Sequence record: NC_105617.1
DNA length: 50,709 nucleotides
Strand: one strand, 5' to 3'
Source of the DNA: a phage
Made by a program: the position numbers and the translations under genes. Shown one piece after another: positions 29,770-45,505 of this stretch; within the stretch, counting starts at the first letter, position 1, and every line of letters begins with the position of its first letter. Under the pieces are notes generated by a model. It did not search any database and was not told the origin of the DNA. It worked only from the letters and a program-made list of their open reading frames with translations.

Positions 29770-30182
29770 TTACAGATAAAGGCGATTACTTAGAGTTTTA
29801 CGAGCGAGATCCTAGCGACACGAGAAAGGAGGACGCTCATCAAGTAGACTGCGTGTCTTGGTTGAAATACAATTTTCCTCAGCTTCTATTTTGGCACACA
29901 GTTAACGAAGGTGAAAAAACAATCACATCGGCGCTCAGGGACGAGCAAGCCGGATTGCTTAAAGGTGTTTCGGACTTCGTTATCCTGATTGGTGTAAACT
30001 CACGTTACCCGTTCGCAGCTATCGAACTCAAACGGGTTAATAAGTCCGGCAAGGGAAAGGCGTCACCAGTCAGCGATAAGCAAAGGGAGTTTCTCAAAAA
30101 GGTTCGGGATCGCGGTGGATTCTCTGCCGTTGCATACGGATTTGAGCAATTCAAGCTGGCAATATACGATTTAACTAAATAG
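29766..30182 (+). CDS. VRR-NUC domain nuclease
   Basis: 138 aa with D...ELK signature (SDFVILIG...AIELK) typical of VRR-NUC PD-(D/E)xK nucleases; overlaps helicase stop. Confidence 0.55.
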   Translation: MITDKGDYLEFYERDPSDTRKEDAHQVDCVSWLKYNFPQLLFWHTVNEGEKTITSALRDEQAGLLKGVSDFVILIGVNSRYPFAAIELKRVNKSGKGKASPVSDKQREFLKKVRDRGGFSAVAYGFEQFKLAIYDLTK

Positions 30183-30228
30183 CACTTTTTGTTAAAACTG
30201 CCTGAATGGAATCTGGCATTATTATCCC
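30180..30228 (+). promoter_or_regulatory. Box-hairpin-(-10) cassette upstream of dam
   Basis: TAG stop of upstream gene = box start; ttgtta + 22 nt + CATTAT; near-duplicate of minus cassette 40057-40099. Confidence 0.5.
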
Positions 30229-30249
30229 ACCGAAACGAGAGGATTAAAA

Positions 30250-30963
30250 ATGAAAGACTTTAAAGATATCGAAACAATCGACTTTGCAGAAACCGGGTGC
30301 TCATTCACTCGCGAAGCAATAGCATCAGGCGGTTATTATCAAGCATTGAAAACGCCAACCTGCAAAGAGATTTCAGGACGTCGATACAAGGGAACAAATA
30401 CACCTGACGCAGTTCGTGATTTATGGTCAACCCCACGCGAGGTTATCGCATACCTTGAGGGTCGCTACGGAAAATATGATCTCGACGCTGCGGCAAGCGA
30501 AGAAAATAAAGTTTGCGAGAAGTTTTATTCCCAGGAAACAAACTGCTTAAAACGTTGGTGGGGTAAAAATAAGCACGTATGGTTAAACCCTCCTTACAGT
30601 CGACCTGATATATTCGTCAAGAAAGCGATTGAGCAAATGGAGCACAACAACCAGATCGATATTCTTTTACCTGCCGATAACTCGACTGCGTGGTTTACTG
30701 AGGCTCGACAGCACGCGGCTGAAATCATCTGGATTGAAGCTGATTTGACTGAGGATATTGACGGCAATGAATACGCACGATCCGGTCGCTTGGCTTTCAT
30801 ATCCGGTGAAACTGGAAAGGCGGTTGACGGCAATAACAAAGGTTCGGTAATTTTCATTATGCGCGAACTTAAAGAGGGTGAGACACAGCAAACTCACTAT
30901 ATCCCAATCACAAGCATTTGCCCTTCGGTGAAAAACAAGCGCGCAAAAGTGAGGAAAGTATGA
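30250..30963 (+). CDS. dam: DNA N6-adenine methyltransferase (phage Dam family)
   Basis: 237 aa; catalytic NPPY motif (WLNPPYS); architecture of phage orphan Dam enzymes. Confidence 0.8.
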   Translation: MKDFKDIETIDFAETGCSFTREAIASGGYYQALKTPTCKEISGRRYKGTNTPDAVRDLWSTPREVIAYLEGRYGKYDLDAAASEENKVCEKFYSQETNCLKRWWGKNKHVWLNPPYSRPDIFVKKAIEQMEHNNQIDILLPADNSTAWFTEARQHAAEIIWIEADLTEDIDGNEYARSGRLAFISGETGKAVDGNNKGSVIFIMRELKEGETQQTHYIPITSICPSVKNKRAKVRKV

Positions 30964-31211
30964 TGAACGATAAAATGATTCCGGTTAAGTTAACTGATCA
31001 AGGTTTATGGCTGCTTTATCGAGCTACCTGCTGCGAAATTATGGAGAGAAACGGATTGACTCAGGATGTTATTGGTTGCGATCTGTGGGAGTTCACTAGT
31101 TCTCTTGATATGTCTTTCGACGAGATAAAAAGTGAATGCATAGAGAATTGGCCTTCAATCATACAGAAAGACGTGGAAGAACTTAAAGCTGATACAATCG
31201 TAAAGCACTAA
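30960..31211 (+). CDS. Hypothetical protein
   Basis: ATGA overlap with dam stop, RBS GAGGAAAG; 83 aa. Confidence 0.4.
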   Translation: MMNDKMIPVKLTDQGLWLLYRATCCEIMERNGLTQDVIGCDLWEFTSSLDMSFDEIKSECIENWPSIIQKDVEELKADTIVKH

Positions 31212-31250
31212 TTGCTAAAAATACCCGGCGAAAGTCGGGTATAGTTATTT
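31204..31250 (+). promoter_or_regulatory. Box-hairpin-(-10) cassette
   Basis: agcacTAAttgctaaaaa + 22 nt + TATAGT; hairpin tacccg/cgggta. Confidence 0.5.
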
Positions 31251-31277
31251 CATCAAAACGAAATGAGGAATCAGAAG

Positions 31278-31487
31278 ATGGCACGCATTAACGCAAACTT
31301 TTTCAATATCGCTCAACAGTCAGCAAAGATGGCTGTTCATATCACTGACAAGAAAGGCGGCAACTTTGATTGGGATATTGCCATGAACTTCCTTAAAATG
31401 GCTTACTACCTCTGCTCAGTCAAAGATGTTGAGTGTTTTATTGAAAGCGTGGAGAAACTAACCGATGCTTATAAAAAAACAAGGTAA
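31278..31487 (+). CDS. Hypothetical protein
   Basis: 69 aa behind a box-hairpin promoter cassette; RBS GAGGA. Confidence 0.4.
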   Translation: MARINANFFNIAQQSAKMAVHITDKKGGNFDWDIAMNFLKMAYYLCSVKDVECFIESVEKLTDAYKKTR

Positions 31488-31737
31488 ACGAGAGGTTTGG
31501 GAGCACGCGAAGGAATGCGGAATATCAGACGATATAGCACTAATAGCAAAATATTTCGATATAAAGGATGTTAGCATTATCTCAAATGGCAAGATTTCAT
31601 TTATGGAGGATATGCCGAGAAAAATGCATAGAGTGCCAGCAACTCCGTCACTTGAGTTTTATCGTGAAGAGGGAAAGAGAATTGATCGAGAACGAAAAAC
31701 AGCAAAGAACAACAAGTCTTCCAGGCTTAAACATTAA
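31465..31737 (+). CDS. Hypothetical protein
   Basis: 90-aa ORF overlapping upstream gene end; basic C-terminus. Confidence 0.35.
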   Translation: MLIKKQGKREVWEHAKECGISDDIALIAKYFDIKDVSIISNGKISFMEDMPRKMHRVPATPSLEFYREEGKRIDRERKTAKNNKSSRLKH

Positions 31738-31969
31738 CGAAGACGATTACCAGACCATATGGATCGGAAAGAAGCAGGTTAAGCAAATCCCTTTCTCTGA
31801 TTGGTTGCCTCCTGACTTCGTTAACGTGCTGTGTACCATAGGGATCGATCAGGAATTGCATATAGGTTATTACTCACCTGGTCGAAACAGTATGATGCTT
31901 GAGGTTGACGGAAAGCTAGTTGAGTTTAAATCGTCAGATCTAGGATTCTGGTTAAAGGCTGTGGCATGA
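31682..31969 (+). CDS. Hypothetical protein (start uncertain)
   Basis: Open frame 31568-31969 overlaps the previous ORF in another frame; unique coding part 31738-31969; possible TTG start at 31682. Confidence 0.3.
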   Translation: MIENEKQQRTTSLPGLNINEDDYQTIWIGKKQVKQIPFSDWLPPDFVNVLCTIGIDQELHIGYYSPGRNSMMLEVDGKLVEFKSSDLGFWLKAVA

Positions 31970-32047
31970 ATCTTTATTTTGCTGTAGTATTAACACCGCT
32001 AATTTCATTTTCAGTAATGTATTTCATTATCATGTAAGGATTAAAAT

Positions 32048-33199
32048 ATGTCACAAGCTAAAATCACTACCGAGCAACTTATTGAAGAGCGCATGAGCGG
32101 ACTTACACTTCGCGAGATTGCGGAAAAGTACGGCATGCACATTCGCACTGTTGAAGCTCGTCACGCAAAACTTGCAAAGGAAGGTCACTTCCACGGTAAC
32201 GAGCATGTTGCTAAGAACGTACCGGAAGGATTCATGGTAAAAGGCACATCAACGATGATTCGCGGCGATGGGACCGAGGTAGTGCGATGGGTTAAGACCG
32301 ATCAGGACCGTGAGAAGATTGCGGCAATGATGGAAGCAGCGCGTATTGCATTCTGTGAAGACTTGCCGAGAGCAAAACCAACTGAGCTACTCACATCGCA
32401 AGGGCTTACAACCGCTATTGGCAAGCTGGCACTCTACCCGGTGTTCGATCTTCACATTGGCGCGCTCGCTCACAAGCATGAATGCGGAGAGAACTACTCT
32501 ACAGACGTAGCGGAAAAAGTGCTGAATGACTTCTTTAACTACGCGATCGATATTGCCCCGAACGCAGAGAAGGCTGTTCTGTTAATCGGCGGCGACTTCC
32601 TTCACTCAGACGGTCTTGATTCTGTTACCCCGGCAAGCGGTCACGTTCTGGATCAGGATTCACGATATGCGAAATTGGTGCATGTGGCTATTCGATCGGT
32701 GCGAAGAGCTATCGACAAAATGCTGACTAAACACAAAGAGGTCGAAGTTCAGGTTATCGAAGGGAACCACGACCAGGCCGGAATGATTTGGCTACGCGCT
32801 GCAATGGCTGCATACTATGAGGACGAGCCGCGAGTATTCGTTGACGTTAGTCCTATGATTCTGCATAAGACCCGCTGGGGAAATACCTTGTTGGGATACA
32901 CTCACGGTCACACGATGAAAAAGGCAGACACGCGACTTGCAGCGATGGCGGCAGACTTCCGTGCAGACTTCGGTGAAAGCAAATACGTGTATACTCACAG
33001 TGGACACTGGCACCATCAAACAATCACAGAACACTCGTTAGGTATTGATGAGGTTCACGGGCAGTTAGGCGCGAAAGATGCATACGCCGCGCGAGGCGGG
33101 TGGCGCTCATATCGCCAGGCGGCGGTAATCGTTTACGATAAACAGTTTGGTGAAATCGGTCGATTCATCTATCGTCCAGAAATGACAGGATCGCACTAA
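32048..33199 (+). CDS. Calcineurin-like metallophosphoesterase with N-terminal HTH (sigma70 region 4-like)
   Basis: Motifs DLH, GGDFLHSDG, GNHD, GHTH/GHWH; N-terminal LTLREIAEKYGMHIRTVEARHAKL resembles sigma-70 region 4.2 / LuxR-type HTH. Confidence 0.6.
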   Translation: MSQAKITTEQLIEERMSGLTLREIAEKYGMHIRTVEARHAKLAKEGHFHGNEHVAKNVPEGFMVKGTSTMIRGDGTEVVRWVKTDQDREKIAAMMEAARIAFCEDLPRAKPTELLTSQGLTTAIGKLALYPVFDLHIGALAHKHECGENYSTDVAEKVLNDFFNYAIDIAPNAEKAVLLIGGDFLHSDGLDSVTPASGHVLDQDSRYAKLVHVAIRSVRRAIDKMLTKHKEVEVQVIEGNHDQAGMIWLRAAMAAYYEDEPRVFVDVSPMILHKTRWGNTLLGYTHGHTMKKADTRLAAMAADFRADFGESKYVYTHSGHWHHQTITEHSLGIDEVHGQLGAKDAYAARGGWRSYRQAAVIVYDKQFGEIGRFIYRPEMTGSH

Positions 33200-33235
33200 T
33201 CGCCAAAAACTCCCGAAGGGATTCGGGTATATTGA
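33192..33235 (+). promoter_or_regulatory. Box-hairpin-(-10) cassette (degenerate box)
   Basis: cgcacTAAtcgccaaaaac + 22 nt + TATATT; hairpin cccgaa/ttcggg. Confidence 0.45.
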
Positions 33236-33262
33236 CCACATAGAAAACAAAGAGGGTATTTC

Positions 33263-33439
33263 ATGAAACGAGTTAAGTGCATCCGAAATGATTCCAAAAC
33301 GCTTCCATTCCGCGTAAATCAGATCTATAGTGTTGGTTATGATTTCGGAGGTGGATTGTTTGAGATTTACGATGGTAGAGGTTCAACAATACAAGCTCCT
33401 CTGAACGGTCATTACCTAGAATTTATTGAGCTAGATTAA
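33263..33439 (+). CDS. Small hypothetical protein
   Basis: 58-aa ORF below track cutoff with RBS AGAGGG, own promoter cassette upstream and hairpin terminator downstream. Confidence 0.35.
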   Translation: MKRVKCIRNDSKTLPFRVNQIYSVGYDFGGGLFEIYDGRGSTIQAPLNGHYLEFIELD

Positions 33440-33461
33440 CAATATCATTCATAACCTTACG

Positions 33462-33491
33462 GGCTGGCATGGTTTACATGCTGGCCTTTTT
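33462..33491 (+). terminator. Terminator-like hairpin after small ORF
   Basis: ggctggcatg-gttta-catgctggcc (two G-T pairs) plus T5. Confidence 0.4.
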
Positions 33492-33557
33492 GCGTTGTAT
33501 CAAGTAAATTTGAAGGTTAAAATCAACTCACTTGTTCAAAAAATATATGGTGAGATT

Positions 33558-33773
33558 ATGAAAGAATTTTTAACAGCGGCTACGTCAAGCACGGGAGGCG
33601 CTTCATTGGTAGGGGCGGCGACAGGGCAACTTTATATTGCTGGCGCTACATTCATTTGCTTTCTGCTTTTTGGTGCATGGGGCGCATACTGGAAGTATCG
33701 TGATAGTAAGGCAATTCAGGAAGCGTTAAACGATGGCGATCTAAATAAGGCGCTTAAGATCAGGGGGAGATAA
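33558..33773 (+). CDS. Holin (putative pinholin)
   Basis: 71 aa with Gly/Ala-rich weak TM followed by hydrophobic TM ([31 protein letters not shown]), charged C-terminus; TAATG overlap with endolysin. Confidence 0.5.
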
Positions 33774-34261
33774 TGAGCTTAAAAAATAACGTTATAGGCG
33801 CATCGATCGGGGCCGCTTTGACGTTGACGCCTACCCTGCTGGAACGAATCGAAGGGATAGAATACGAAGTGTATTACGATATAGCTGGAGTACCTACCGT
33901 ATGCAGCGGAATAACCGGGCCGGACGTCATACCTGGCAAGAAATACACTAAGCGAGAATGCGATGCATTACTGATAAAGCATATAGGCGTCGCTCAGCGA
34001 TACGTTGACAAGAAGGTTAAGGTTGAAATTCCGGTAACGATGCGCGCCTCACTCTACAGCTTTACTTTCAACGTTGGTACTAGCGCATTCGGATCTTCCA
34101 CAATGCTTAAGCTAATCAATCAGGGTAAGCACAAGGAGGCGTGCAATCAGTTATGGCGATGGGTATACTACTACAATCCAAAAACAAAAAAGCGCGAAGT
34201 ATCGAGAGGCATAAAGAATCGACGCGCTGAAGAATACGCGTATTGCGTTAAGGAATTATGA
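33773..34261 (+). CDS. SAR endolysin (lysozyme, T4 E / P21 R-type)
   Basis: Gly/Ala-rich N-terminal signal-anchor-release segment; catalytic region [20 protein letters not shown]...[10 protein letters not shown]...[10 protein letters not shown] closely matches the P21-type SAR lysozyme pattern as recalled. Confidence 0.85.
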
Positions 34262-34662
34262 TGAAACTGAAGAAAACTTGCATTGCAGTTACTATTGCTG
34301 TTGGCGTTATTTCTCTATCAGGCTGTTCTGCGGCATCTGCCCTGAGCGGTTTAATTGGATCTAAACCGGAAGTTACGGCGCAGATTGGAGAGGAGAACAC
34401 AAAGCAATTAGCAGGAGTAACCGCAAAATCCGAAGATAAGAGAGATGTTAAAGTTGAGAAGTCCAATGTAGGAAAGGTTGACTCTTCCGTGAAAAAATCA
34501 ATTGAAGTGTCAACCATTAAGGCCAACACAGTTAACGCTGAAAGCATCACAGTCACTAAGCCTGGTAATTGGTACGACGCAATTGTAGGGTGGACTCTCG
34601 TTTTTATTGGCCTGTTGATGGTTTATTTTTCAATTCGTAAGTACGAAAAAAAGGAGGCGTAA
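34258..34662 (+). CDS. Unimolecular spanin (T1 gp11-like)
   Basis: N-terminal lipoprotein signal with lipobox LSGC plus C-terminal transmembrane helix ([13 protein letters not shown]) in one 134-aa protein; last gene of lysis cassette. Confidence 0.7.
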
Positions 34663-34678
34663 GCCTCCTTTCTTTTAT
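34644..34678. terminator. Bidirectional intrinsic terminator between lysis cassette and minus-strand block
   Basis: aggaggc-gtaa-gcctcct hairpin flanked by A8 and T-rich run. Confidence 0.6.
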
Positions 34679-34890
34679 GCATCAGCCCACATGTAACTTT
34701 CGTTCGTGAGTTTTGCGTATTCGCGAACCTCAATCTCGCAGGTGTCGCCGTACATCTCAGCGACCTTCTTCTCGTTCGCTACCGCCGTTTCTTCAGTCCA
34801 TCCATCAGCCTTGCTGTAAAGTGTAGGAATCTCACTGCTAGTGCCGTTAGAGTGGTTGTAAACGCGAACTACTAAAAATTTGTTAGCCAT
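34675..34890 (-). CDS. Hypothetical protein
   Basis: 71-aa ORF behind a minus-strand box-hairpin cassette; ends at a bidirectional terminator. Confidence 0.45.
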   Translation of the reverse strand: MANKFLVVRVYNHSNGTSSEIPTLYSKADGWTEETAVANEKKVAEMYGDTCEIEVREYAKLTNESYMWADA

Positions 34891-34927
34891 GATGTTTTCC
34901 TTCAGGTCGTTTCATTTCGATGAAACA

Positions 34928-34970
34928 AATATACCCGATACGAGATCGGGTGTTTTAACAAAAAGTGCTA
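34928..34970 (-). promoter_or_regulatory. Box-hairpin-(-10) cassette (minus)
   Basis: Minus strand tagcactttttgttaaaac + 22 nt + TATATT; hairpin cccgat/atcggg. Confidence 0.5.
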
Positions 34971-35079
34971 TTTGTACCTTTTCACATGAAGGAGCAACTC
35001 GCCATCCTGATCGCAAAGATTGTGTTCGCTGTCATTGTTGGCCCTCATTGAAGTAAGTAACAGGCTGAGTAACCCCTGT

Positions 35080-35487
35080 TCAAATTCTTCCTTTGTAAGC
35101 TGGAGTCTTGCGCACAATTCGACGTTCCGATCTATCAATGTTTCTACGTTCGCCAAACAAATCCTCATCACTCATCTCTCCAATGTGCATCATTTCCCAC
35201 GTATACCGATTGCTGTAGCCATCAATACACAACAGCTTCATCATTACCGGGCGCTTAATCTTTCCCTTGCACCAGTAAACACCATCCTTGCGATCCAAGT
35301 AACCCTCAGTCACGCAACGAGAGCAAAACTCCTTAGATAGCGCACTTGTAAATTCACGGTGAGTCATTCCAGCAGCCTTAGCAAATCGCTCACTTTCCTT
35401 GTGGGCGTATATAAATTTCGCTATGTGCTGTCGGGTGTATTTGTCGTAACCTTCGCAGAACCTGAACAGATCTAAAAGAAGCAGCAT
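35080..35487 (-). CDS. Hypothetical protein, possible winged-helix DNA-binding
   Basis: 135 aa; segment ERFAKAAGMTHREFTSALSKEF...GYLDRKDGVYW has HTH-like character; directly downstream of the P-loop NTPase gene. Confidence 0.35.
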   Translation of the reverse strand: MLLLLDLFRFCEGYDKYTRQHIAKFIYAHKESERFAKAAGMTHREFTSALSKEFCSRCVTEGYLDRKDGVYWCKGKIKRPVMMKLLCIDGYSNRYTWEMMHIGEMSDEDLFGERRNIDRSERRIVRKTPAYKGRI

Positions 35488-35491
35488 ATCA

Positions 35492-37060: not shown

Positions 37061-37089
37061 CACAATAAACTCCTTAGTTGACGGTGTAA

Positions 37090-37132
37090 ATGATACACCG
37101 CCAATGGTATACGCTTTTTGCAAAAAGTGCTA
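37090..37132 (-). promoter_or_regulatory. Box-hairpin-(-10) cassette (minus)
   Basis: Minus strand tagcactttttgcaaaaa + 22 nt + TATCAT. Confidence 0.45.
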
Positions 37133-37136
37133 TTGG

Positions 37137-37562
37137 TTATAAGTATTTGGCCTCAAAGGTTGTGCCGTCTGCGATACTAAAACCAACCTCTTCGCGAAAC
37201 AAGGTCCATCGACAACCATCTTCATCAAAGATGTAACCAGCTACGCCACCGAGAGCGCGACCGCTTTCAACCTGGTAACGCTTGCCAACTTTGAATGATT
37301 TTTTCATTGGGTTGCGATGGTCAAGCCCGGTGCACTTGAGCGTCTTTGTTTTCAACTCAGTGAACTTCGCGAAGAAGATTTCATCAGATCCGTGAATCTG
37401 TAATTCATCATGCTTTTCAAGTTTTAAATACTTGCCGCATTTTAACTTGATTTCACGAGTGCCATCATAGCGCTCTCTACCTTTGTACAGGTTGTTAACT
37501 TCAAATCCTGTGATTTTGTCTGCTGAAGTGCATTTAAGTTTGATGGATTTCATTGCGTTCAC
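37137..37562 (-). CDS. Hypothetical protein
   Basis: 141-aa ORF behind cassette with CCAATCAGGAG leader. Confidence 0.45.
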   Translation of the reverse strand: MNAMKSIKLKCTSADKITGFEVNNLYKGRERYDGTREIKLKCGKYLKLEKHDELQIHGSDEIFFAKFTELKTKTLKCTGLDHRNPMKKSFKVGKRYQVESGRALGGVAGYIFDEDGCRWTLFREEVGFSIADGTTFEAKYL

Positions 37563-37589
37563 TCCTGATTGGTTATCTTGAATAAGGCC

Positions 37590-37632
37590 ACTTTATCAAA
37601 TGACCTTACGGCAATATTAACAAATCGTGCTA
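37590..37632 (-). promoter_or_regulatory. Box-hairpin-(-10) cassette (minus)
   Basis: Minus strand tagcacgatttgttaat + 22 nt + TAAAGT; near-duplicate of plus cassette 45457-45505. Confidence 0.5.
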
Positions 37633-37633
37633 T

Positions 37634-38074: not shown

Positions 38075-38107
38075 TTTTAATTCCTTTATTTCGTTTGGTG
38101 TGGGAGT

Positions 38108-38151
38108 AATATACCTTACTCCCTATTTATTGTCTTTAGCAATTAGTGCTA
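38108..38151 (-). promoter_or_regulatory. Box-hairpin-(-10) cassette (minus)
   Basis: Minus strand tagcactaattgctaaag, hairpin gggagta/tactccc with TATATT in loop (spacer 23). Confidence 0.45.
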
Positions 38152-38295
38152 TCAGTACTCGGAAATTACTTTACACTCTTTGATTGTTCCACCTAGAACT
38201 ACTTTCTGCATCATTGCTTTTTGGTGGCTATCGTAAACGCGAACATTTTTTACGCTGTTAAATTTGCCAGTATAGAAAGTGTGAATATAAATCAT
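38152..38295 (-). CDS. Small hypothetical protein (micro-ORF)
   Basis: 47-aa ORF below track cutoff; ATGA overlap with upstream stop; its own stop TGA directly abuts a TAGCAC box. Confidence 0.25.
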   Translation of the reverse strand: MIYIHTFYTGKFNSVKNVRVYDSHQKAMMQKVVLGGTIKECKVISEY

Positions 38296-38829: not shown

Positions 38830-39193
38830 ACAATTCCTCCTTAACACGGTCCGCAATGCAGGAGTTTACAGAGATTGAGTAGTTAGCCACGCCCCATAAT
38901 GCAATATTGCCAAGCTCGGTACGCATTGATGGATTATTAAGCTGGATTATTGTCTCTCCAGTATCATTATCAATAAAGCGAGACACGCCTAAATGGTCCA
39001 CGGCGCGGGTTACTCGGTTAACACACTCCATTGCATCACTTACACCATAATAAGCGCTTAGAGCGGCTCTCACGGCATTCTCTTGCTTGTTGTAAATCTT
39101 TCGTGCAATGTTCTCGATCGCTACGTTCTCTTTCTCGTCAGTCTGGATTGCTGTGCTTGCTGAGAAGTCCAGGTCTACGAATTGTTTAAACAT
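38822..39193 (-). CDS. Hypothetical protein
   Basis: Start at ATG 39193 downstream of cassette 39225-39267; the longer track ORF would run through the promoter. Confidence 0.45.
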   Translation of the reverse strand: MFKQFVDLDFSASTAIQTDEKENVAIENIARKIYNKQENAVRAALSAYYGVSDAMECVNRVTRAVDHLGVSRFIDNDTGETIIQLNNPSMRTELGNIALWGVANYSISVNSCIADRVKEELYE

Positions 39194-39224
39194 GGTGATT
39201 GCCTCGTTTTCTGTAGATGGGATA

Positions 39225-39267
39225 ACTATACCAGCCATCCATGCCGTGCGTTTAGCAAAAAGTGCTA
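39225..39267 (-). promoter_or_regulatory. Box-hairpin-(-10) cassette (minus)
   Basis: Minus strand tagcactttttgctaaacg + 22 nt + TATAGT. Confidence 0.5.
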
Positions 39268-39270
39268 TCC

Positions 39271-39377: not shown

Positions 39378-39608
39378 TTACCCCCTGAAACTATCAATAG
39401 TGTCATTAATGTATTTCACCTGAGCCTCGACGTCTGACGTGGCGATATACTGAAATGTATCGTAATCCTCCCGCAAGTCGACAAGCTCAATCTTTGTATG
39501 ATGCTCTTTCAAGCCACCCATGTGACCGTAATGCGTTCTGTAGACAATGAATCCCTCATCATTGGCGCGCTGAATTGCCTTCTTCAGCCCGGGGTGTTTA
39601 ATTGCCAT
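39378..39608 (-). CDS. Hypothetical protein
   Basis: 76 aa behind cassette with CCAATCAGGAG leader. Confidence 0.5.
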   Translation of the reverse strand: MAIKHPGLKKAIQRANDEGFIVYRTHYGHMGGLKEHHTKIELVDLREDYDTFQYIATSDVEAQVKYINDTIDSFRG

Positions 39609-39639
39609 CTGTTGATTCTCCTGATTGGTTGATGTGTTA

Positions 39640-39682
39640 ACTATACCCCGATCTCACTCGGGGCGTTTAGCAATTCGTGCTA
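39640..39682 (-). promoter_or_regulatory. Box-hairpin-(-10) cassette (minus)
   Basis: Minus strand TAA stop + tagcacgaattgctaaac + 22 nt + TATAGT; hairpin ccccga/tcgggg. Confidence 0.55.
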
Positions 39683-40018
39683 TTAATCGATATCAAACTC
39701 AGCGGCGTATGCTTTCTTGAAGCCAGCTTCGCGCATAGTGCGCTTGCTGATTTTGCGCGGGAATTTGTACTGGCTGTTAGGCTTGACCCACCAGAAGCAG
39801 GAAGTCTCGCGAACGATTTCATATTTACCGTAACGAGTGAAGGTATCGCGTTCCATATCAGGCTGATTAACACAGGTCAGGAATTTAGCTGCTTTGTCTT
39901 CAGTTTTGATTTCTTCCCAAACGAATGAGTCCATTCCGTTAACCTTGCAAGCAACCATGATGTACTCAACGCCGTTTTCGATTTTGATGATTTCGTTACC
40001 GCGATTTTCGTATTTCAT
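39683..40018 (-). CDS. Hypothetical protein
   Basis: Start at ATG 40018 with RBS AGGAG downstream of cassette 40057-40099. Confidence 0.45.
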   Translation of the reverse strand: MKYENRGNEIIKIENGVEYIMVACKVNGMDSFVWEEIKTEDKAAKFLTCVNQPDMERDTFTRYGKYEIVRETSCFWWVKPNSQYKFPRKISKRTMREAGFKKAYAAEFDID

Positions 40019-40056
40019 TTTCTTGCTCCTGATGTGTATCTCGTTTCGATGAGGTA

Positions 40057-40099
40057 ATAATGCCAGATTCCATTCCGGCAGTTTTAACAAAAAGTGCTA
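40057..40099 (-). promoter_or_regulatory. Box-hairpin-(-10) cassette (minus)
   Basis: Minus strand tagcactttttgttaaaac + 22 nt + CATTAT; box encodes C-terminus of MTase-like gene. Confidence 0.5.
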
Positions 40100-40788
40100 T
40101 TTGCGATCGCTTTAAAAAATCCCCTGGGCGACAGGGATCGTATCAACTTAGTTTTGGCAGATTTGCCGCCTAGCTTACTGTGCTGTGCAGAGTACCCGTC
40201 AGGCAGGCTTACAGGTTTTCTCTCGGGCATGACAAAATCGTCAGAGGTCCAAAGGCAAGTTTTCTTCGGGTAAGCATCGCGCGGCGCAATATACATCGGG
40301 AACCAGGGGTGTGAGTCATTCTCAGGAAGATAGCCGCCATACTCCCAGGGATTGAAGGAGTGATTTGGTTTTCTCCAGGCAGATGACAGGACGCTAACCG
40401 GATTCTCAATGATGTAAGTCACGCCCAGGCTATCGCCAATGTTCGCAGCAATCCGGGCGGTGGCAACAGCCTTCTCCTGGAATAACTGATCGCGTTCACG
40501 CTTTCTTGCGAAGTGAGCGGCACCACTAACAGCTAGGTCAGTGCACGGCGGGAAGGCCATAATGAAATCCGGCTTGCCATACACGCCAGCGATAGCATCA
40601 CGCTCAAACGCTGCGTCAATGAACACGTTCACATACTCAATGTTCGGATGCTCCACTCGGGCATTGTACTTTGCGTAATCTCCGTGATCGGCTCCGTCAA
40701 AGTTGAAGCACATTACCTTGTGACCTTGCTTAGCTAGCTCATGACCAGCAAGACCGGAACCGTCGAATAGGGACCAAATCAACTTCAT
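40084..40788 (-). CDS. DNA cytosine-C5 methyltransferase-like protein (compact, noncanonical)
   Basis: Motif I-like LFDGSGLAG, motif IV-like FPPCTDLAVSGA (PC dipeptide, T in place of Q), motif VI-like IIENPVS; only 234 aa; last five codons (NSTFC-stop) are encoded by a TAGCAC box. Confidence 0.5.
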   Translation of the reverse strand: MKLIWSLFDGSGLAGHELAKQGHKVMCFNFDGADHGDYAKYNARVEHPNIEYVNVFIDAAFERDAIAGVYGKPDFIMAFPPCTDLAVSGAAHFARKRERDQLFQEKAVATARIAANIGDSLGVTYIIENPVSVLSSAWRKPNHSFNPWEYGGYLPENDSHPWFPMYIAPRDAYPKKTCLWTSDDFVMPERKPVSLPDGYSAQHSKLGGKSAKTKLIRSLSPRGFFKAIANSTFC

Positions 40789-40928
40789 TTTGCGATCTCC
40801 TTTTTGTAGTGATTCAGCTTGTCGATGATTGACTTCGACTTGTTGGCTAGCGCCATGTCAGAGAACAGAGCTACGCGATAGATGTGTTCGTAACGATTAA
40901 TGGCTGCGTTGATGTTTGCAATATTCAT
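40785..40928 (-). CDS. Small hypothetical protein
   Basis: 47 aa from ATG 40928 behind CCAATCAGAGGA leader; first gene of the minus-strand block. Confidence 0.35.
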   Translation of the reverse strand: MNIANINAAINRYEHIYRVALFSDMALANKSKSIIDKLNHYKKEIAK

Positions 40929-41018
40929 GTCGATTCCTCTGATTGGTTGATGAGATGAATCATACCCGATCGGCAGTGCTGATGTGTTGCAAAAAATGCT
41001 ATTCCAATAGTTGCTCAT

Positions 41019-41610
41019 TATTCCACCATCAATGGAATATCTGGAATAATTGCGATCCCGATTGATCTCGAATGATGAAATGTGATTGTTGCATGGTGTG
41101 CAACTGTTGATGTGATTGTTTCTTAGAATGCAATGATTGTGAGAGGGGGGATTTAGTGTTACCCGGTTCGCCTGGTGGTCATCTCCATTTTTAGCAAAAC
41201 GTGCTATCGATTACAATTTAACTTGTCACGACTGTAATATTTGTCTAGAATCGCACTTGTGACAAAATTACGCACTGTGACGCATCACAATAGACATATA
41301 GATATATGTATATATATAATATATATAGTGTTTTTTTTATTTATATATATAGATAATTATATTGTAATAGTTGTGTATAGCCGTCTTACATTGTCTAGCG
41401 TACTGTTGGCATATTTCTATCTGCATGTTTATATATACAGTACTTTTTTGAGGGCTATATATTTCTATAGTGACTCTAGACAGCTAGACAAATATTACAC
41501 AGCTTAAAATTGGCTTGCAGTCGTTGACAGCTCTACGTCGCTCTGTCACAATGGCAATTGTTGACATGCTATGACACCATTTACACACCAATAGACAAAG
41601 AGGGCACATT
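41019..41610. repeat. AT-rich divergent control region with repeated TGTCAC/GTGACA and TTGTCTAG/CTAGACAA motifs (hub 2)
   Basis: Repeats tgtgattgtt x2, acttgtcac/acttgtgac, ttgtctag x2, ctagaca x2, atagaca x2; (TA)n tracts 41295-41360. Confidence 0.5.
41524..41552 (+). promoter_or_regulatory. Candidate sigma70 promoter for plus-strand early block
   Basis: TTGACA-17 bp-CACAAT about 58 nt upstream of ATG 41611. Confidence 0.4.
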
Positions 41611-42126
41611 ATGAGCAATACCAATCAGGAATTAAAAATCACCGACATGATTCGACTAACCTGCGATGCAATGTACCGCGACAAAGGCATGACCGAGTTC
41701 TCTTTCGTGGCTGATGATATGGCCCTAGAAGCAGCGCGATTCTACTTTCGTGGCCAGGAGGTAAGTGATAGCGATCTTGAATCTGCCGCTGCCGGATGGG
41801 TGGACCAGAACCAGGGGGAGGTAGAGAAGCGATTCAAATCTGCTTTCATCACTCCAATCATTACCCGACACTTTTGCAAGTATGGCAAGGTGGCAAAGGT
41901 GAAGGTAGGCCGGAATGACGCGGCAATCACGATGATAACCGTTATCGTTACCGACGAAGAGGTTCCGGTGAAGAAGCGCCGCAGCCGGAAAAAAGTTAGC
42001 CTGGCCGACTGCCTTGATTCGTTTGACGTTGATGTTAGCAAGCTATCCGATAGCGAGTTAATGGTTCGTGATGTGAATGAGATCGTGCGCCAGATGAAAG
42101 CACATATTGAAAAGTGTGGACTGTAA
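41611..42126 (+). CDS. Hypothetical protein
   Basis: 171 aa, first gene of the plus-strand early block, RBS AGAGGG; basic patch KKRRSRKK. Confidence 0.5.
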   Translation: MSNTNQELKITDMIRLTCDAMYRDKGMTEFSFVADDMALEAARFYFRGQEVSDSDLESAAAGWVDQNQGEVEKRFKSAFITPIITRHFCKYGKVAKVKVGRNDAAITMITVIVTDEEVPVKKRRSRKKVSLADCLDSFDVDVSKLSDSELMVRDVNEIVRQMKAHIEKCGL

Positions 42127-42138
42127 GGAGAGATGAGT

Positions 42139-42378
42139 ATGAGCAAGATTAAGCATGACGCCCTGAAAGGTATCTTGATGCGACTAAACCCAGGTGAAGC
42201 ATTCCAGCTTAACCCCGAGACGTTTGGATTCAATGGTGATTATCGTACAACCTTCGAATTTGTCCGGTATGTAAAGAAAGAGTTTGGATTCGAAGTTATT
42301 CACGCAGGTCTTATCAATGGCATCCAGACATTCATCTTTAAGCCAAATGAGATTCGTTGCTTCACGCTGATGAAATAG
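42139..42378 (+). CDS. Hypothetical protein
   Basis: ATG 42139 preferred over 42133 for RBS spacing; stop TAG lies in a TAGCAC box. Confidence 0.45.
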   Translation: MSKIKHDALKGILMRLNPGEAFQLNPETFGFNGDYRTTFEFVRYVKKEFGFEVIHAGLINGIQTFIFKPNEIRCFTLMK

Positions 42379-42424
42379 CACTTTTTGTTAAAACCGGAGC
42401 GGGATAACCTGGTATAGTTATCCC
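42376..42424 (+). promoter_or_regulatory. Box-hairpin-(-10) cassette
   Basis: TAG stop = box start; ttgtta + 22 nt + TATAGT; hairpin gggataa/ttatccc. Confidence 0.55.
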
Positions 42425-42449
42425 ATCGACAACGAATGAGGAAACGAAG

Positions 42450-42644
42450 ATGGAAACGCAAATTGACGTAGTGGTTGTTCAGCGTGACTCCACCCATGAA
42501 AAGGGGCTATTCAAGAAAGGAACTGAAATCACGATAGACCTTGAGGATATGGTTGCATATCACTCGGGTCTTACCTGGAACGTGGTGCGCGTAGGCAGCG
42601 ACTACAAACTCAAAGGCTTTAACACTTACTTTGCGGAGGTTTAA
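42450..42644 (+). CDS. Hypothetical protein
   Basis: 64 aa behind cassette 42376-42424. Confidence 0.45.
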   Translation: METQIDVVVVQRDSTHEKGLFKKGTEITIDLEDMVAYHSGLTWNVVRVGSDYKLKGFNTYFAEV

Positions 42645-42646
42645 TT

Positions 42647-43117
42647 ATGACAACCATTACCGTATTTCTTGCTAAAGATGAGCTTGATGGCGAAATGTCA
42701 TTCTTCGCGTTTGAGCACAAGACCGGATCGCACTGGCATGCGTACACTCACTACACGGTTATCTCAATCGAGGCGTTCGAAGGTGATTCACTCACTGATA
42801 AGCTGAGTTATTTTGTTGAAGCGGTTAAGGCTAGCGGCGGCTGTGAGTGGAAAGAAGATCACGAAGTTATGCGAATGCTTGAGATGGTCAATCCGGTTCG
42901 ACTTGAGTCTTTCGAGCTTGATTCTTACGTGAGCATTAAGGTGAGAAAGCCGGGTGAGTTGTTGCCAGGGATGCGTGTGCTGACTGGTTACTCAGGTCGT
43001 AAAGTGTGGCGAACCATATCGAAGATTCGACAGCGCTCAGAAACATGCTACAGCGTGTTCTTTGATGACGGCTGGAATGAGGTTGCTGGTAGTAACGTGA
43101 AGTATCTTACCAAATAG
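42647..43117 (+). CDS. Hypothetical protein
   Basis: 156 aa; stop TAG inside a TAGCAC box. Confidence 0.45.
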   Translation: MTTITVFLAKDELDGEMSFFAFEHKTGSHWHAYTHYTVISIEAFEGDSLTDKLSYFVEAVKASGGCEWKEDHEVMRMLEMVNPVRLESFELDSYVSIKVRKPGELLPGMRVLTGYSGRKVWRTISKIRQRSETCYSVFFDDGWNEVAGSNVKYLTK

Positions 43118-43163
43118 CACGAATTGCTAAAACCGGATCGGGGTATCTTGCTATAGTTACCCC
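43115..43163 (+). promoter_or_regulatory. Box-hairpin-(-10) cassette
   Basis: TAG stop = box start; ttgcta + 22 nt + TGcTATAGT; hairpin ggggta/tacccc. Confidence 0.55.
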
Positions 43164-43196
43164 ATCAAAACGACACACCAATCAGAGGATTTCACC

Positions 43197-43460
43197 ATGT
43201 CAATCGTCAAGAATAGAAACGCAATTGAAGCTACTCGCCACAACAAGCAACACGCGATTTTCATTGCTCGCTACTGCTCAAGCATCAATGGTGGCTTGCA
43301 GTATCGCCGCTATGCAGTGATTGAGCTTTCCCCATACATTTACAAAGAGTATCGAGAGGAGAATGGCAAGTGGATTGAGATTGAGGGCGTAACGAGCTTC
43401 TTGATCTGGAATGGTGAATTTCAGGGGTACGACGATATCAGCACTTTAATTGAGGAATAA
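43197..43460 (+). CDS. Hypothetical protein
   Basis: 87 aa behind cassette 43115-43163 with CCAATCAGAGGA leader. Confidence 0.45.
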   Translation: MSIVKNRNAIEATRHNKQHAIFIARYCSSINGGLQYRRYAVIELSPYIYKEYREENGKWIEIEGVTSFLIWNGEFQGYDDISTLIEE

Positions 43461-43466
43461 ATAATC

Positions 43467-43694
43467 ATGCCACGTTACAGCAACCTAACCAAACTAATCC
43501 GCGTCAACGGGCACATGATCCCGGCTAAATCTACTCACTGCGCGAAAGGCGCAAAGCACGGATTATATTTCAAGTGGCGCGGTCAATGGAACTTCACGGC
43601 GGTGAGCAATTTTTACATGCGCGTTCCTGGTGATGATCCGCAATCGGTAGTAGAAAACTCAATCGGCGACAACAAGATCGAGGTACTAAAATGA
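43467..43694 (+). CDS. Hypothetical protein
   Basis: 75 aa, basic. Confidence 0.45.
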   Translation: MPRYSNLTKLIRVNGHMIPAKSTHCAKGAKHGLYFKWRGQWNFTAVSNFYMRVPGDDPQSVVENSIGDNKIEVLK

Positions 43695-43801
43695 ACTTCA
43701 ATACAATAGCTCTATGGTCTGCCGTCTGGTTCTTCTGCATGGGTCACGTTATGGTCGGCATCGTGGTAATGCTTCTCCTGTGTGCGGGGGCGTTCGAATG
43801 A
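43691..43801 (+). CDS. Small transmembrane peptide (micro-ORF)
   Basis: 36 aa MNFNTIALWSAVWFFCMGHVMVGIVVMLLLCAGAFE; ATGA overlap with both neighbours. Confidence 0.3.
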   Translation: MNFNTIALWSAVWFFCMGHVMVGIVVMLLLCAGAFE

Positions 43802-43971
43802 TGCGAATATTGATTTGCATGATGGCGGCGGTCGCCCTGGCTATCCTGGTAGTGTCAGGATGCGGAGAGGTCAGAGATAGCTGTCATAAGACCGGGAACC
43901 AGGTTACTACGCTTGTGATGGTTGGCAACGTTTTGCTACCAATCACATCAAATGAGATCACTTGCGAATAG
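43798..43971 (+). CDS. Small lipoprotein (putative)
   Basis: 57 aa from ATG 43798; signal peptide MMRILICMMAAVALAILVVSGC with lipobox VSGC. Confidence 0.4.
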   Translation: MMRILICMMAAVALAILVVSGCGEVRDSCHKTGNQVTTLVMVGNVLLPITSNEITCE

Positions 43972-43980
43972 GATTTAAAA

Positions 43981-44172
43981 ATGGCTGATTTTATGCACCA
44001 AATGATTGCAGTATTCAAAGGTAGCGAAGATGAGGAAGTAAAAGAGTGCTTTACTGTCGACAAGCATTATAACGCTTCGCTAACCAGCTTCGGTAACATC
44101 TCATTGCTTGATGATAATGGCGATCCCTGGGTATTCGATGAAGATACGGATTGCTTCGAAATTAAAGAATAG
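43981..44172 (+). CDS. Small acidic protein
   Basis: 63 aa rich in D/E; stop TAG inside a TAGCAC box. Confidence 0.45.
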   Translation: MADFMHQMIAVFKGSEDEEVKECFTVDKHYNASLTSFGNISLLDDNGDPWVFDEDTDCFEIKE

Positions 44173-44218
44173 CACTTTTTGTTAAAACGCGATCATGTGG
44201 TTGCGATATAGTAACCAC
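44170..44218 (+). promoter_or_regulatory. Box-hairpin-(-10) cassette
   Basis: TAG stop = box start; ttgtta + 22 nt + TATAGT; hairpin gtggtt/aaccac. Confidence 0.55.
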
Positions 44219-44243
44219 ATCGACAACGAATGAGGACGAGAAC

Positions 44244-44732
44244 ATGAAAATTAAATTACTGTGCACTGGCGGTTACAAAGGCTTTACTCGCGACCTGGAA
44301 TCAGACCCGATTATCGTTGACGCTGTGAAGTGCGATGATAGCACGGGCGGCTACCGCGTCAAGGTTGACGACCTGGTAAAAGCTGGCGTGTACGATCTGG
44401 ATTACGGCCTATCGGTTAGTCCAGTATTTGGCCCGGCTGACTTCAACGAAAATGACGGAACGATGTTCTTTTTTGAATGGGAAGTCCAGGCAAACATCAA
44501 GCCGCGCAAGGTTCGACTTCTCAACAATGGCGGGTATCCTATGCGCCCTGGTTATGAGAATCGCACGTTCCCGGTTATTGTTGACTTTGAGGAAATTACC
44601 AGCACCCTGGCTTACGTTGGAAATGAACAACTCAATGCTGTAGGTTTTTGGGGTGGGATGAATAAAGAGTCTCTTTGCTTCTTCCATCGCGACACCGAAC
44701 CGTTCTCTATTGAGTGCGAGTTAGTTTACTGA
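44244..44732 (+). CDS. Hypothetical protein
   Basis: 162 aa behind cassette 44170-44218. Confidence 0.5.
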   Translation: MKIKLLCTGGYKGFTRDLESDPIIVDAVKCDDSTGGYRVKVDDLVKAGVYDLDYGLSVSPVFGPADFNENDGTMFFFEWEVQANIKPRKVRLLNNGGYPMRPGYENRTFPVIVDFEEITSTLAYVGNEQLNAVGFWGGMNKESLCFFHRDTEPFSIECELVY

Positions 44733-44780
44733 GCACGAATTGTTAAAAGGGGATTCGTCCTGACTGGTACAATCCACATA
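44730..44780 (+). promoter_or_regulatory. Box-hairpin-(-10) cassette
   Basis: tGAgcacgaattgttaaaag + 22 nt + TGgTACAAT. Confidence 0.5.
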
Positions 44781-44803
44781 TCAACCACTAAGAGGAAATC
44801 ATT

Positions 44804-45310
44804 ATGTTGAAATTAGAAGACGTAAAATTCCCGATTAAATTTATCAGCCTGGGTTGCGGTGAAATTACATTCACCAGTGAAGATAAAGGCAAGTGGGCAA
44901 CTGATGAGGTGTCTCAGCTTAAGTTGGATTGGTTTATCAATAGGCACAATGAAGTAAATCCTGAAAACTCAGCCAAGAAGGATTACCATTACATTATTAG
45001 TGGTAGTCAGGATGTGTACGAAAAGTATGATGGTTGGAAAACTGATCGATCCATCTTCCACCCCGCAAAGCCAGAAATTAAACCGATGTTACAATGCACT
45101 CAGATCGAGAACATGCCATTGAGCGCTACGATAAAGGGCGTCCAACTTGATAGCGAATCCTGGGCCGAGATTACCGCAACACCTAAAACTATTGAGGTGC
45201 ATGATGATGTAGTGATTCTCCTATTGCATTACGGCAGCTTTAAGCACAAAACGGTATCAGGTGAAATAAGCATTAAGCGCGGAACACTTGTACGCTATGA
45301 GGTGAAATAA
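44804..45310 (+). CDS. Hypothetical protein
   Basis: 168 aa behind cassette 44730-44780. Confidence 0.5.
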   Translation: MLKLEDVKFPIKFISLGCGEITFTSEDKGKWATDEVSQLKLDWFINRHNEVNPENSAKKDYHYIISGSQDVYEKYDGWKTDRSIFHPAKPEIKPMLQCTQIENMPLSATIKGVQLDSESWAEITATPKTIEVHDDVVILLLHYGSFKHKTVSGEISIKRGTLVRYEVK

Positions 45311-45459
45311 TGGCTTCATGGGTTTTGATTATCTTAATGAGTACCGGGCCAGATCACGTATACATGGAAAGCCAACAATCATGCAACAAGGCTCGGGAGG
45401 TGATTTCAGAGAACAGGCCGTTCGGATACGAAGTAAAAACGATGTGCGTTAAACGATAG
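45310..45459 (+). CDS. Small hypothetical protein (micro-ORF)
   Basis: 49 aa with hydrophobic N-terminus (MASWVLIILMSTG); TAATG overlap upstream; stop TAG is the TAG of a TAGCAC box. Confidence 0.3.
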   Translation: MASWVLIILMSTGPDHVYMESQQSCNKAREVISENRPFGYEVKTMCVKR

Positions 45460-45505
45460 CACGAATTGATAAACCTTCCGCAAGGCCATTTGATATAGTG
45501 GCCTT
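45457..45505 (+). promoter_or_regulatory. Box-hairpin-(-10) cassette
   Basis: TAG stop of micro-ORF = box start; ttgata + 22 nt + TGaTATAGT; hairpin aaggcca/tggcctt. Confidence 0.55.

Follow-up and report, generated by a model that had tools for sequence, protein, structure and literature searches.

Probable recombining gene-junction cassettes with a candidate marbox promoter and a putative RNA hairpin in a T1-like phage

Sequence record NC_105617.1 is a phage genome of 50,709 nucleotides (the window, below, means this whole stretch), complete, permuted and of the T1-like kind (Tunavirus, Drexlerviridae). In front of many of its early and middle genes stands the same promoter-like cassette, and certain of these cassettes, which lie on opposite strands, are nearly identical to one another. 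An earlier note on this DNA had taken the likeness as a sign that complete promoter-leader units were recently duplicated or transferred. The locus raises the question of how the copies came to be so alike, and of what a cassette of this kind does. The explanation that is considered probable here, on the basis of sequence comparison, is that they are recombining gene-junction cassettes, each of which would combine a candidate marbox promoter with an RNA hairpin.

The cassette family and its near-identical members

About 22 paralogous cassettes of 70-85 nt join the early and middle genes of the window. Their parts follow one another in a constant order: a box (ATAGCACnnnTTGnTAAA), a spacer of fixed length that holds a variable inverted repeat, a -10 element, the dinucleotide CA at the inferred transcription start (+1), a leader, a Shine-Dalgarno sequence and the ATG. 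The box is 17-20 nt long and, in the form ATAGCACnnnTTGnTAA, has 43 matches with at most three mismatches in the window against 16 expected, with 20 exact ones. When 81 cassettes from the window, T1, TLS and Rtp were aligned on the box, the consensus read aaATAGCAC-N-W-W-TTG-Y-TAAAa, then 14 variable positions, then t.tG.tAtaaT, with CA 6-7 bases further on. Of the 23 window cassettes, 21 place the -10 at 21 nt from the 17-nt box and one at 22 nt; the remaining one, 41207 (cassettes are named here by the coordinate of their 5' end), is without an in-register -10. The -10 consensus is tAtaaT with tG upstream, and the TGn extension is found in many cassettes and missing in about a third. Leaders are of two types, CATCGAnAACGA or AACCAATCAGAGGA, and the ATG follows the box at 71-84 nt.

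Every cassette of the early and middle region is oriented toward its own downstream gene. The opposite strands stressed in the earlier note are for this reason only a reflection of divergent transcription units. The stop codon of the upstream open reading frame (ORF) lies inside the box or directly abuts it in 16 of 22 cassettes (30180-30182, 42376-42378 and 40084-40086 are examples), as TAG at box positions 2-4, TGA at positions 1-3, TAA at positions 8-10 or 15-17, or a TAA that either overlaps the first bases of the box or ends 2 nt before it. An exchange within the box would therefore always leave the upstream gene properly terminated.

The near-identical cassettes are real. An independent repeat finder returned as its top inverted repeat pair A, 30177-30240 versus 40039-40102, with 60 of 64 nt identical (94%), which agrees with the roughly 60 nt of near-identity described earlier for the cassettes at 30180 and 40018. 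Ranked second was pair B, 37566-37633 versus 45456-45523, with 78% identity over 68 nt and a hairpin core alike at 25 of 27 positions. The figure of about 80% over box, hairpin and leader that had been given for this pair is borne out over these 68 nt, but from box to ATG the identity is only 60/84, or 71%. The repeat finder also aligned 39199-39234 with 42409-42444 (36 nt, 83%). All coordinates named in the earlier note hold a cassette, and the strings said to link those at 42376, 39193 and 48846 are present: ctggtatagttatcccatc at 42375 and 39268, and catcgacaacgaa at 42375, 44169 and 48845.

Because all cassettes share one consensus, the null chosen for these likenesses was a permutation of each of the 45 ungapped post-box columns among 21 cassettes (5000 trials), which keeps the family consensus. 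The members of pair A agree in 41 of the 45 columns, and the permuted sets went no higher than 34. Pair B reached 33/45 (P about 0.002), and 42375 agreed with 43114 in 33 and with 48845 in 32 of 45 columns (P about 0.002-0.007). More than the box and the -10 hexamer is therefore alike in the pairs. The likeness stops where the cassette does, the flanking genes being unrelated: BLAST of 1.3 kb around each member returned only the 64-nt match of pair A or the 27-nt core of pair B, with no protein-level similarity.

Exchange between cassettes

A 20-kb query from the window matched 381 phage records, headed by the Escherichia/Shigella Tunavirus phages XJA18, Sfin-1, EF3-1 and LeonhardEuler, which are collinear with it at 91-93% identity. 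Comparison with relatives bore out the expectation that the cassettes flank differing gene content, since modules of a cassette and an ORF occur in differing combinations in the window, EF3-1, CLB_P3, Sfin-3, Sfin-1 and LeonhardEuler. The module of cassette 39609..39683 and its 76-amino-acid gene, for instance, occurs in the window, CLB_P3 and Sfin-3, whereas EF3-1, LeonhardEuler and Sfin-1 lack it.

The origin of pair A can be followed at the locus behind the Dcm gene. In EF3-1 and CLB_P3 the order is Dcm, a cassette alpha (spacer actcgatcggtgtgatttggcataatta), two 186-nt genes, a cassette beta (dam-type spacer actgccggaatggaatctggcattatta) and the MKYENRG gene. In the window the upstream flank of alpha is joined to the spacer of beta, and the crossover therefore lay in the box. 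LeonhardEuler and Sfin-1 have the flanks and the MKYENRG gene as in the window but the unrelated spacer actcgatcggtgtgatttggcataatta; here the alpha spacer is joined to the beta leader, and the crossover therefore lay in the shared ttacctcatcgaaacgaga. The two 186-nt genes of EF3-1 have left no trace in the window, and where the EF3-1 alignments meet they overlap across the window cassette, as is characteristic of a repeat-mediated deletion or insertion. As reconstructed from these alignments, the Dcm-MKYENRG junction is shown to have formed twice, with differing crossover points.

The 40100 cassette is a mosaic, with the upstream flank of one cassette, a dam-type spacer, hairpin and -10, a neighbour-like discriminator and a leader of its own; the exchange points are the conserved box and the conserved leader. 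Cassette beta is itself mosaic, its spacer and -10 being those of the dam cassette consensus and its discriminator that of alpha. The dam-type spacer is found at the dam locus of T1, LeonhardEuler, Sfin-1 and seven IMG/VR contigs. SH6 has a further copy of it before MKYENRG, and in pSf-2 it stands before another gene, behind a GAA-type box and with a different leader, which makes three different genes and two box subtypes in total. Since the dam cassette lies on the opposite strand, where a crossover would invert 10 kb, we infer that pair A was produced by a non-crossover conversion patch.

Pair B has a different history. In T1, LeonhardEuler and Sfin-1 each of its members is kept at its own locus, and both types are recognisable in TLS (Tempevirinae) and in the Klebsiella phage KP36 (Webervirus). 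The 45456+ cassette shares 86% identity with its counterpart in TLS and 79% with that in KP36, against 71% with 37633- in its own genome. TLS and KP36 carry the B1 cassette in nearly identical form before unrelated genes, and no homology to the window's gene was found among the genes behind it in T1, TLS and KP36. Because of this conservation at each locus and across genera, pair B is best read as an old cassette sub-family that stays put while the genes behind it change, with no recent duplication; the word "recent" in the earlier note does not apply to it.

In the third group, the 42375 cassette differs from the one at the orthologous locus of LeonhardEuler and Sfin-1, though both flanking genes are about 90% identical. 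Its 5' part resembles 43114, the 19 nt around the -10 resemble 39268 and the 19-nt leader resembles 44169, and on this evidence it is a mosaic as well. Across the interval 26-50.7 kb, 9 of the 26 distinct breakpoints between the window and Sfin-1, LeonhardEuler or T1 fall inside cassettes, which make up 9.6% of the sequence (P = 5e-4), an enrichment that is weak evidence by itself because breakpoints favour intergenic DNA anyway.

Two other accounts of the near-identical pairs have to be set against these observations. That a whole promoter-leader unit was recently copied to a second site and has hardly diverged would explain why pair A is alike over box, spacer, -10 and the first leader bases (60/64), and some past copying of whole units would fit the linkage of box subtype to leader type. 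This linkage is weak (odds ratio 3.3, P = 0.04), as expected where modules are reshuffled. The parts of the 40100 cassette have different nearest relatives, pSf-2 has the same spacer behind another box subtype and before another leader, and the members of pair B are old and separately conserved across genera. Recent copying of whole units is contradicted for pair B and for pair A at full length, and is quite improbable overall; what stands of the earlier claim is that sequence moved between cassettes, as mosaic patches of differing origin and not as complete units. It is also hardly probable that nothing was transferred and that the likeness arose by convergence or shared constraint, through the same factor or the same hairpin. 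The B1 hairpin is kept in sequence, beyond its structure, in Tunavirus, Tlsvirus and Webervirus, which could reflect sequence-specific selection. The crossover signatures and the missing genes are nevertheless direct evidence of exchange, the mosaic junctions oppose convergence for pair A, and the dam-type spacer is not required at the locus orthologous to 40100, since LeonhardEuler and Sfin-1 use an unrelated spacer for the same gene.

These comparisons show that cassettes recombine through their conserved ends, the box of about 20 nt and the discriminator and leader of about 19 nt. Crossovers between neighbouring cassettes in direct orientation delete or insert the intervening ORFs and leave chimeras, and short patches of spacer, hairpin and -10 are copied between distant, also inverted, cassettes, of which pair A is an example. 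The near-identical pairs are footprints of cassette exchange or, for pair B, of old sub-families kept across genera. The exchange could be carried out over some 20 nt of homology by the RecE-like exonuclease and the Erf-like annealing protein of the phage, whose genes, an exonuclease VIII-like (RecE-like) one and an Erf-like one, correspond to the window ORFs 21855-22919 and 22961-23641 according to the annotation of collinear relatives.

The box as a candidate marbox, and the hairpin

The marbox, as printed in PMC12052159, is 5'-GCAnnWWnTGnnAAA-3'. Where 1.03 exact matches to this pattern are expected in the window, 22 occur, and the matches number 20 in T1, 19 in TLS, 14 in Rtp, 21 in Sfin-1, 19 in LeonhardEuler and 12 in KP36. 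The box positions that vary among the 81 cassettes are the n positions of the marbox consensus, and positions 9 and 10 are A or T only, as is W. In class II promoters a forward marbox overlaps the -35 (PMC12052159); such sites cluster at -41, with no -35 and a canonical -10, and class I promoters, mar among them, have the marbox in reverse. For class II the archetype is micF, whose site is at about -41 (CACT-7-AAA); in the E. coli chromosome sequence it reads GCACTGAATGTCAAA, 20 nt, TAGAAT, with the 15-mer at -48 to -34. The phage cassettes match micF in orientation and in the 20 nt between the 15-mer and the -10, and no recognisable -35 hexamer stands 16-18 nt from the cassette -10. If +1 is the conserved CA 7 nt past the -10, the predicted site would be centred at -40/-41. 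The marbox of the mar promoter, reversed, is ATGCCACGTTTTGCTAAATC, and it has CACGTTTTGCTAAA in common with the box at 41191-41207, at 14 of 14 positions.

A phage-encoded activator of the MarA type was rejected as the reader of the box: a profile made from MarA, SoxS and the N-terminal domain of Rob gave a best E of 0.11 when run against ORFs in all six frames of the window, T1, TLS and Rtp. When 40 ORFs were scanned with Pfam and PHROG, no sigma factor, MotA or AsiA came up, only a Cro-like helix-turn-helix (HTH) protein. The lack of a MarA homologue in the phage therefore points to Rob, MarA or SoxS of the host. Each cassette would then be a promoter without a -35, and its box a class II marbox bound by host Rob, MarA or SoxS (RamA in Klebsiella) and placed as at micF. 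That the cassettes are class II promoters served by these host proteins is held to be a serious possibility, a little short of probable. More tentatively, T1-like phages in general (Tunavirinae, Tempevirinae, Braunvirinae, Webervirus) may drive almost all of their early and middle genes from class II marbox promoters that depend on, or are tuned by, a host regulator, the same cassette being a plug-and-play recombination junction. No paper linking the marbox with T1-like phages was found in the literature searched.

The second feature of the cassette, an inverted repeat that lies between the box and +1 and varies in sequence, folds with z < -1.9 in 17 of the 23 cassettes. Loops are of 4-10 nt, and the stems vary in sequence and position. 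The hairpin ends at the -10 in 31202, 34971, 39683 and the pair A cassettes and encloses the -10 in most others. Contrary to the assumption of a freely variable hairpin, hairpins group into sub-families. Among 107 unique cassettes from six genomes, 79 fold more stably as sense RNA and 24 as antisense; with composition controlled, z is -2.76 for sense versus -1.58 for antisense (P = 2e-11), and G-U pairs are commoner on the sense strand. Compensatory changes separate orthologues: T-A is replaced by G-C in T1 at the 44169 locus, and in the KP36 B2 copy AAGGTCA/TGGCCTT has become AACGTCA/TGGCGTT, a compensatory change from G-C to C-G. Column-pair complementarity over 161 unique cassettes gave a weak signal (maximum z = 4, centre at position 38.5), weak because the hairpin register shifts between cassettes, and the evidence for the hairpin is that of the per-sequence z-scores. 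Rfam holds no family matching the cassette hairpins.

Since its 5' arm lies upstream of the inferred start, the hairpin is possible only in RNA that reads through from the upstream gene. It might act there, as RNA on read-through transcripts, as an attenuator or terminator or as a stabiliser of the 3' end, and the sense-strand bias is consistent with a predicted terminating stem-loop. In the GenBank record of T1, three cassette hairpins, 38973-39001 (before dam), 39998-40024 and 41980-42007, are annotated as rho-independent terminators ("transcriptons"), ST18 and ST15 included. The same record gives these terminators without the remark that each sits inside a box-to-(-10) promoter unit.

A number of points weigh against the marbox and hairpin readings. 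Laboratory strains support the growth of T1-like phages with no inducer present. An extended -10, found in many cassettes, is perhaps sufficient without an activator, the box conserves positions that are free in the marbox (ATA before GCAC, TT before G), which could mean a different and more specific binder, and a Cro-like HTH regulator, conserved, is encoded by the phage itself. Rob is largely sequestered in standard growth (PMC10268841), and MarA and SoxS are inducible. Four boxes at late genes (50676+, 6691-, 10456- and 26128+), conserved in T1, LeonhardEuler and TLS, have no promoter behind them or face the wrong way and are left unexplained by a purely class II reading; they may be roadblocks or antisense starts. 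As for the hairpins, only two or three pass a scan for terminator shape, with 31221-31242 and 34933-34951, orthologous to hairpins marked as terminators in T1, passing in the window. A terminator-like appearance is confined to hairpins that end at the -10, where the T-run is provided by the -10 and the discriminator, and it is exactly this kind that the T1 record lists as terminators; most enclose the -10 and are followed by CATCGAC..., with no T-run. No mapping of transcription starts or 3' ends for Drexlerviridae was found in the literature searched.

Other readers of the box can be weighed on the same features. It could be the operator of a phage protein, the candidate being the Cro-like HTH regulator (27204-27656, minus strand), which would act as activator, repressor or L5-like "stoperator" roadblock. 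Besides the existence of this conserved gene, stoperator or enhancer roles were proposed by the authors of the TLS paper (PMC11447400), box variants with TTGCTAA form the partial palindrome TAGCA-N5-TGCTA, promoterless boxes just upstream of late genes, terS among them, suit a roadblock, and the box is more conserved than the marbox consensus demands. Such an operator is nonetheless rather unlikely, because conservation is asymmetric (aaA before TAGCA, AAA after TGCTA), about 40% of the boxes read TTGTTAA and so lose the palindrome at a position where the marbox allows any base, the marbox fit is exact in sequence, orientation and spacing, and the first-transcribed genes need a factor that is already in the cell. 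A host RNA polymerase acting alone, with TTGnTA as a displaced -35 and/or A/T-rich UP element and the extended -10 dominant, is improbable in turn. TTGnTA stands 22 nt from the -10 in essentially every cassette, which is 5 nt past the optimum and therefore more than a -35 element allows; neither a -35 nor an UP element gives the invariant GCAC any role; and about a third of the cassettes are without TGn. These features outweigh the resemblance of TTGnTA to TTGACA, the TGn before the -10 in many cassettes and the UP-element likeness mentioned for the TLS repeat (PMC11447400).

It is extremely improbable, lastly, that the hairpins act as DNA, in the form of cruciforms or of N4-type hairpin promoters, in spite of inverted repeats lying inside the promoter as they do in N4 early promoters. 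The strand asymmetry in stability is strong, with more G-U pairs on the sense strand; loops of 4-10 nt on variable stems differ from the conserved 5-7 bp stem and 3-nt loop of the N4 type; and neither the window nor related genomes have a virion RNA polymerase gene. The N4-type promoter was ruled out on these grounds. Two further promoter classes were rejected. A consensus scan for sigma-70 promoters did not pick up the cassettes and was not enriched (34 matches against 38.7 expected), which set aside the canonical sigma-70 promoter. The outcome resembles the trouble that the authors of the TLS paper had in locating promoters (PMC11447400). A T4 MotA-dependent middle promoter was set aside since TTGCTAA is 21 nt from the -10, as against about 12 nt for the MotA box (centred at -30), and since neither MotA nor AsiA is found among the 40 ORFs. 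It was also observed that GGCATTATTATCCC of the dam cassette (30196-30230, plus strand) agrees at 13 of 14 positions with GGCAATATTATCCC of the mar promoter, which overlaps MarR operator site I. This likeness is probably a chance effect of the shared -10, as the spacing of the TGCC/GGCA half-sites differs.

Cassette inventory, genome context and known systems

The cassettes and isolated boxes of the window are collected in Table 1.

Table 1. Coordinates of the cassettes and boxes in the window, with strand and distinguishing features
Feature	Coordinates	Strand	Remarks
dam cassette	30179..30249	+	Before dam-like methyltransferase gene, ATG 30250; pair A member 1; source type of spacer ctgccNgaatggaatctggcattatta
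Chimeric cassette	40019..40100	-	Before MKYENRG gene, ATG 40018; pair A member 2; alpha upstream flank, dam-type (beta) spacer and beta leader
Type B1 cassette	45456..45539	+	Pair B member 1; hairpin AAGGCCA/TGGCCTT encloses -10 TATAGT; leader AACCAATCAGAGGA
Type B2 cassette	37554..37633	-	Pair B member 2; before T1 gp07 homologue
Mosaic cassette	42375..42449	+	Before Gp54-like gene; spacer, -10 and leader differ at this locus in LeonhardEuler and Sfin-1
Cassette	39194..39268	-	ctggtatagttatcccatc common with 42375
Cassette	48845..48920	+	Leader catcgacaacgaa common with 42375 and 44169
Cassette	39609..39683	-	Paired with 76-amino-acid gene 39378-39608
Cassette	43114..43196	+	Hairpin encloses -10
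Cassette	44169..44243	+	Stem ATGTGGTT/AACCACAT; GGGGTT/AACCCC in T1 (compensatory)
Cassette	44730..44803	+	Box variant TGAGCAC; TGA is the upstream ORF stop
Cassette	47030..47103	+	Hairpin AGGGGAAT/ATTCCCCT
B-like sub-family cassette	47550..47633	+	Before polynucleotide kinase gene
Cassette	31202..31262	+	Hairpin ends at -10, terminator-like shape; T1 orthologue annotated as terminator
Cassette	34891..34971	-	Terminator-like hairpin just 5' of -10
Cassette	37061..37133	-	Before helicase gene; HNH gene inserted at upstream edge in T1
Cassette	38075..38152	-	Box-to-(-10) 22 nt, one above the usual 21
Cassette	27669..27750	+	Before helicase gene, GTG 27751; divergent from Cro-like regulator gene
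Degenerate-box cassette (ATAGCATTTTTAGTTAA)	27144..27220	-	Before primase gene
Decayed cassette	33190..33262	+	Box with 3 mismatches; hairpin, -10 and leader kept; box intact here in LeonhardEuler
Degenerate cassette (ATAGCATTTTTTGCAAC)	40929..41002	-	Box with 3 mismatches; hairpin and -10 kept; leader CAACCAATCAGAGGA; before internal ATG 40928; Sfin-3 orthologue
Orphan box	41191..41207	-	No in-register -10; edge of AT-rich divergent region; core CACGTTTTGCTAAA is the marbox core of the E. coli mar promoter
Promoterless box	50676..50692	+	14 nt before terS ribosome-binding site
Reverse-oriented box	26128..26144	+	21 nt upstream of tail-fibre gene start 26107 (minus strand)
Reverse-oriented box	10440..10456	-	Abuts ribosome-binding site of late gene (tail chaperone) starting 10478
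Reverse-oriented box	6675..6691	-	56 nt upstream of major capsid gene (6747)

In the genome, the late genes occupy 1-26 kb and a replication, dam and lysis block 26-35 kb; two divergent operons of small early genes follow, with an AT-rich control region between them at about 41.0-41.6 kb. This divergent control region (41000-41610) is AT-rich with TATATA runs. The only strong canonical sigma-70 matches in the scanned 30-50 kb are TTGTCA-17-TAGAAT at 41223, TAGACA-18-TATAAT at 41291 and TTGACA-17-CACAAT at 41524, which are probably immediate-early promoters without need for the box. Directly 3' of the 42375 cassette, ORF 42450-42644 (plus strand) matches Pfam PF25180, "Phage antiviral trigger protein Gp54" (E = 2.6e-36). 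A good intrinsic-terminator shape, TCCCTGTCGCCCAGGGG then ATTTTTT, is found at 40121-40137 (minus strand), shortly before the 40100 box and still within the 3' end of the Dcm-like ORF.

T1-like phages are common, fast-growing contaminants and phage-therapy candidates. They encode no RNA polymerase or sigma factor, and the reading of the box as a marbox gives a concrete, testable hypothesis for their transcription, for which careful searches had found only a handful of sigma-70 promoters (PMC11447400). If it is true, phage expression would be coupled to bile, oxidative or antibiotic stress, and these would be unusual virulent phages in being wired to host stress regulators that also control antibiotic tolerance. 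Alternatively, some 20 perfect sites per replicating genome could titrate Rob, MarA and SoxS off the host regulon. The cassette would also double as a recombination junction that supplies a stop codon, an activator site, an RNA hairpin, a -10 and a leader and that shuffles accessory genes. Such shuffling explains the patchy content of small genes, including the Gp54-like defence-trigger gene behind a swapped cassette.

The closest known parallel in behaviour is provided by the promoter-early stem-loops (PeSLs) of the T4-like phages RB49 and phi1 (PMC2839356, Arbiol et al., 2010; PMC4122927, Comeau et al., 2014). A PeSL is a host-type promoter with a stem-loop between an upstream element and the -10, or overlapping the -10, with crossovers mapped to the loop or to the stretch from the -10 to the ATG (PMC2839356; PMC4122927). 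Like the cassettes described here, PeSLs are present in many copies among small genes whose function is not known, and ORFs are lost, gained or exchanged when copies recombine, with chimeric cassettes as the product. The T1-like cassettes differ in belonging to siphoviruses of the unrelated Drexlerviridae and in having no sequence homology to PeSLs. PeSLs carry a -35 and an AT-rich tract, whereas in the cassettes a box of 20 bp, matching the marbox, lies at a fixed 20-21 nt from the -10, no -35 is found at 17 +/- 1 nt, and most of their hairpins are without a U-tract. Gene shuffling of the PeSL style, known from T4-like myoviruses, is thus at work in an unrelated siphovirus family as well.

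With class II marbox promoters the cassettes share, in sequence, the consensus, the forward orientation, the 20-nt distance of micF, the lack of a -35 and the canonical -10; they differ in that about 20 near-perfect sites are carried by a virulent phage genome, in contrast to the degenerate marboxes of the chromosome. The boundary sequences of lambdoid phages are likewise short conserved intergenic sequences at module junctions but are not promoters with a common activator site. The stoperators of L5 are, like the box, asymmetric sites oriented with transcription, but they bind the repressor of a temperate phage, and the phage studied here is virulent, with no evident repressor of this kind. 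The box itself has been seen before. In TLS a 21-nt direct repeat, aaATAGCACnnnTTGnTAAAA, was described about 76 nt upstream of start codons and also reported from T1, Rtp and Rogue1 (PMC11447400, 2024); it is the same element, being alike in consensus, in orientation to transcription and in position. Its function was left open in that paper as a stoperator, an enhancer site or an UP element (PMC11447400). What is new in the present analysis is the -10 in fixed register, the hairpin, the conserved leader, the match to the marbox and the recombination between copies.

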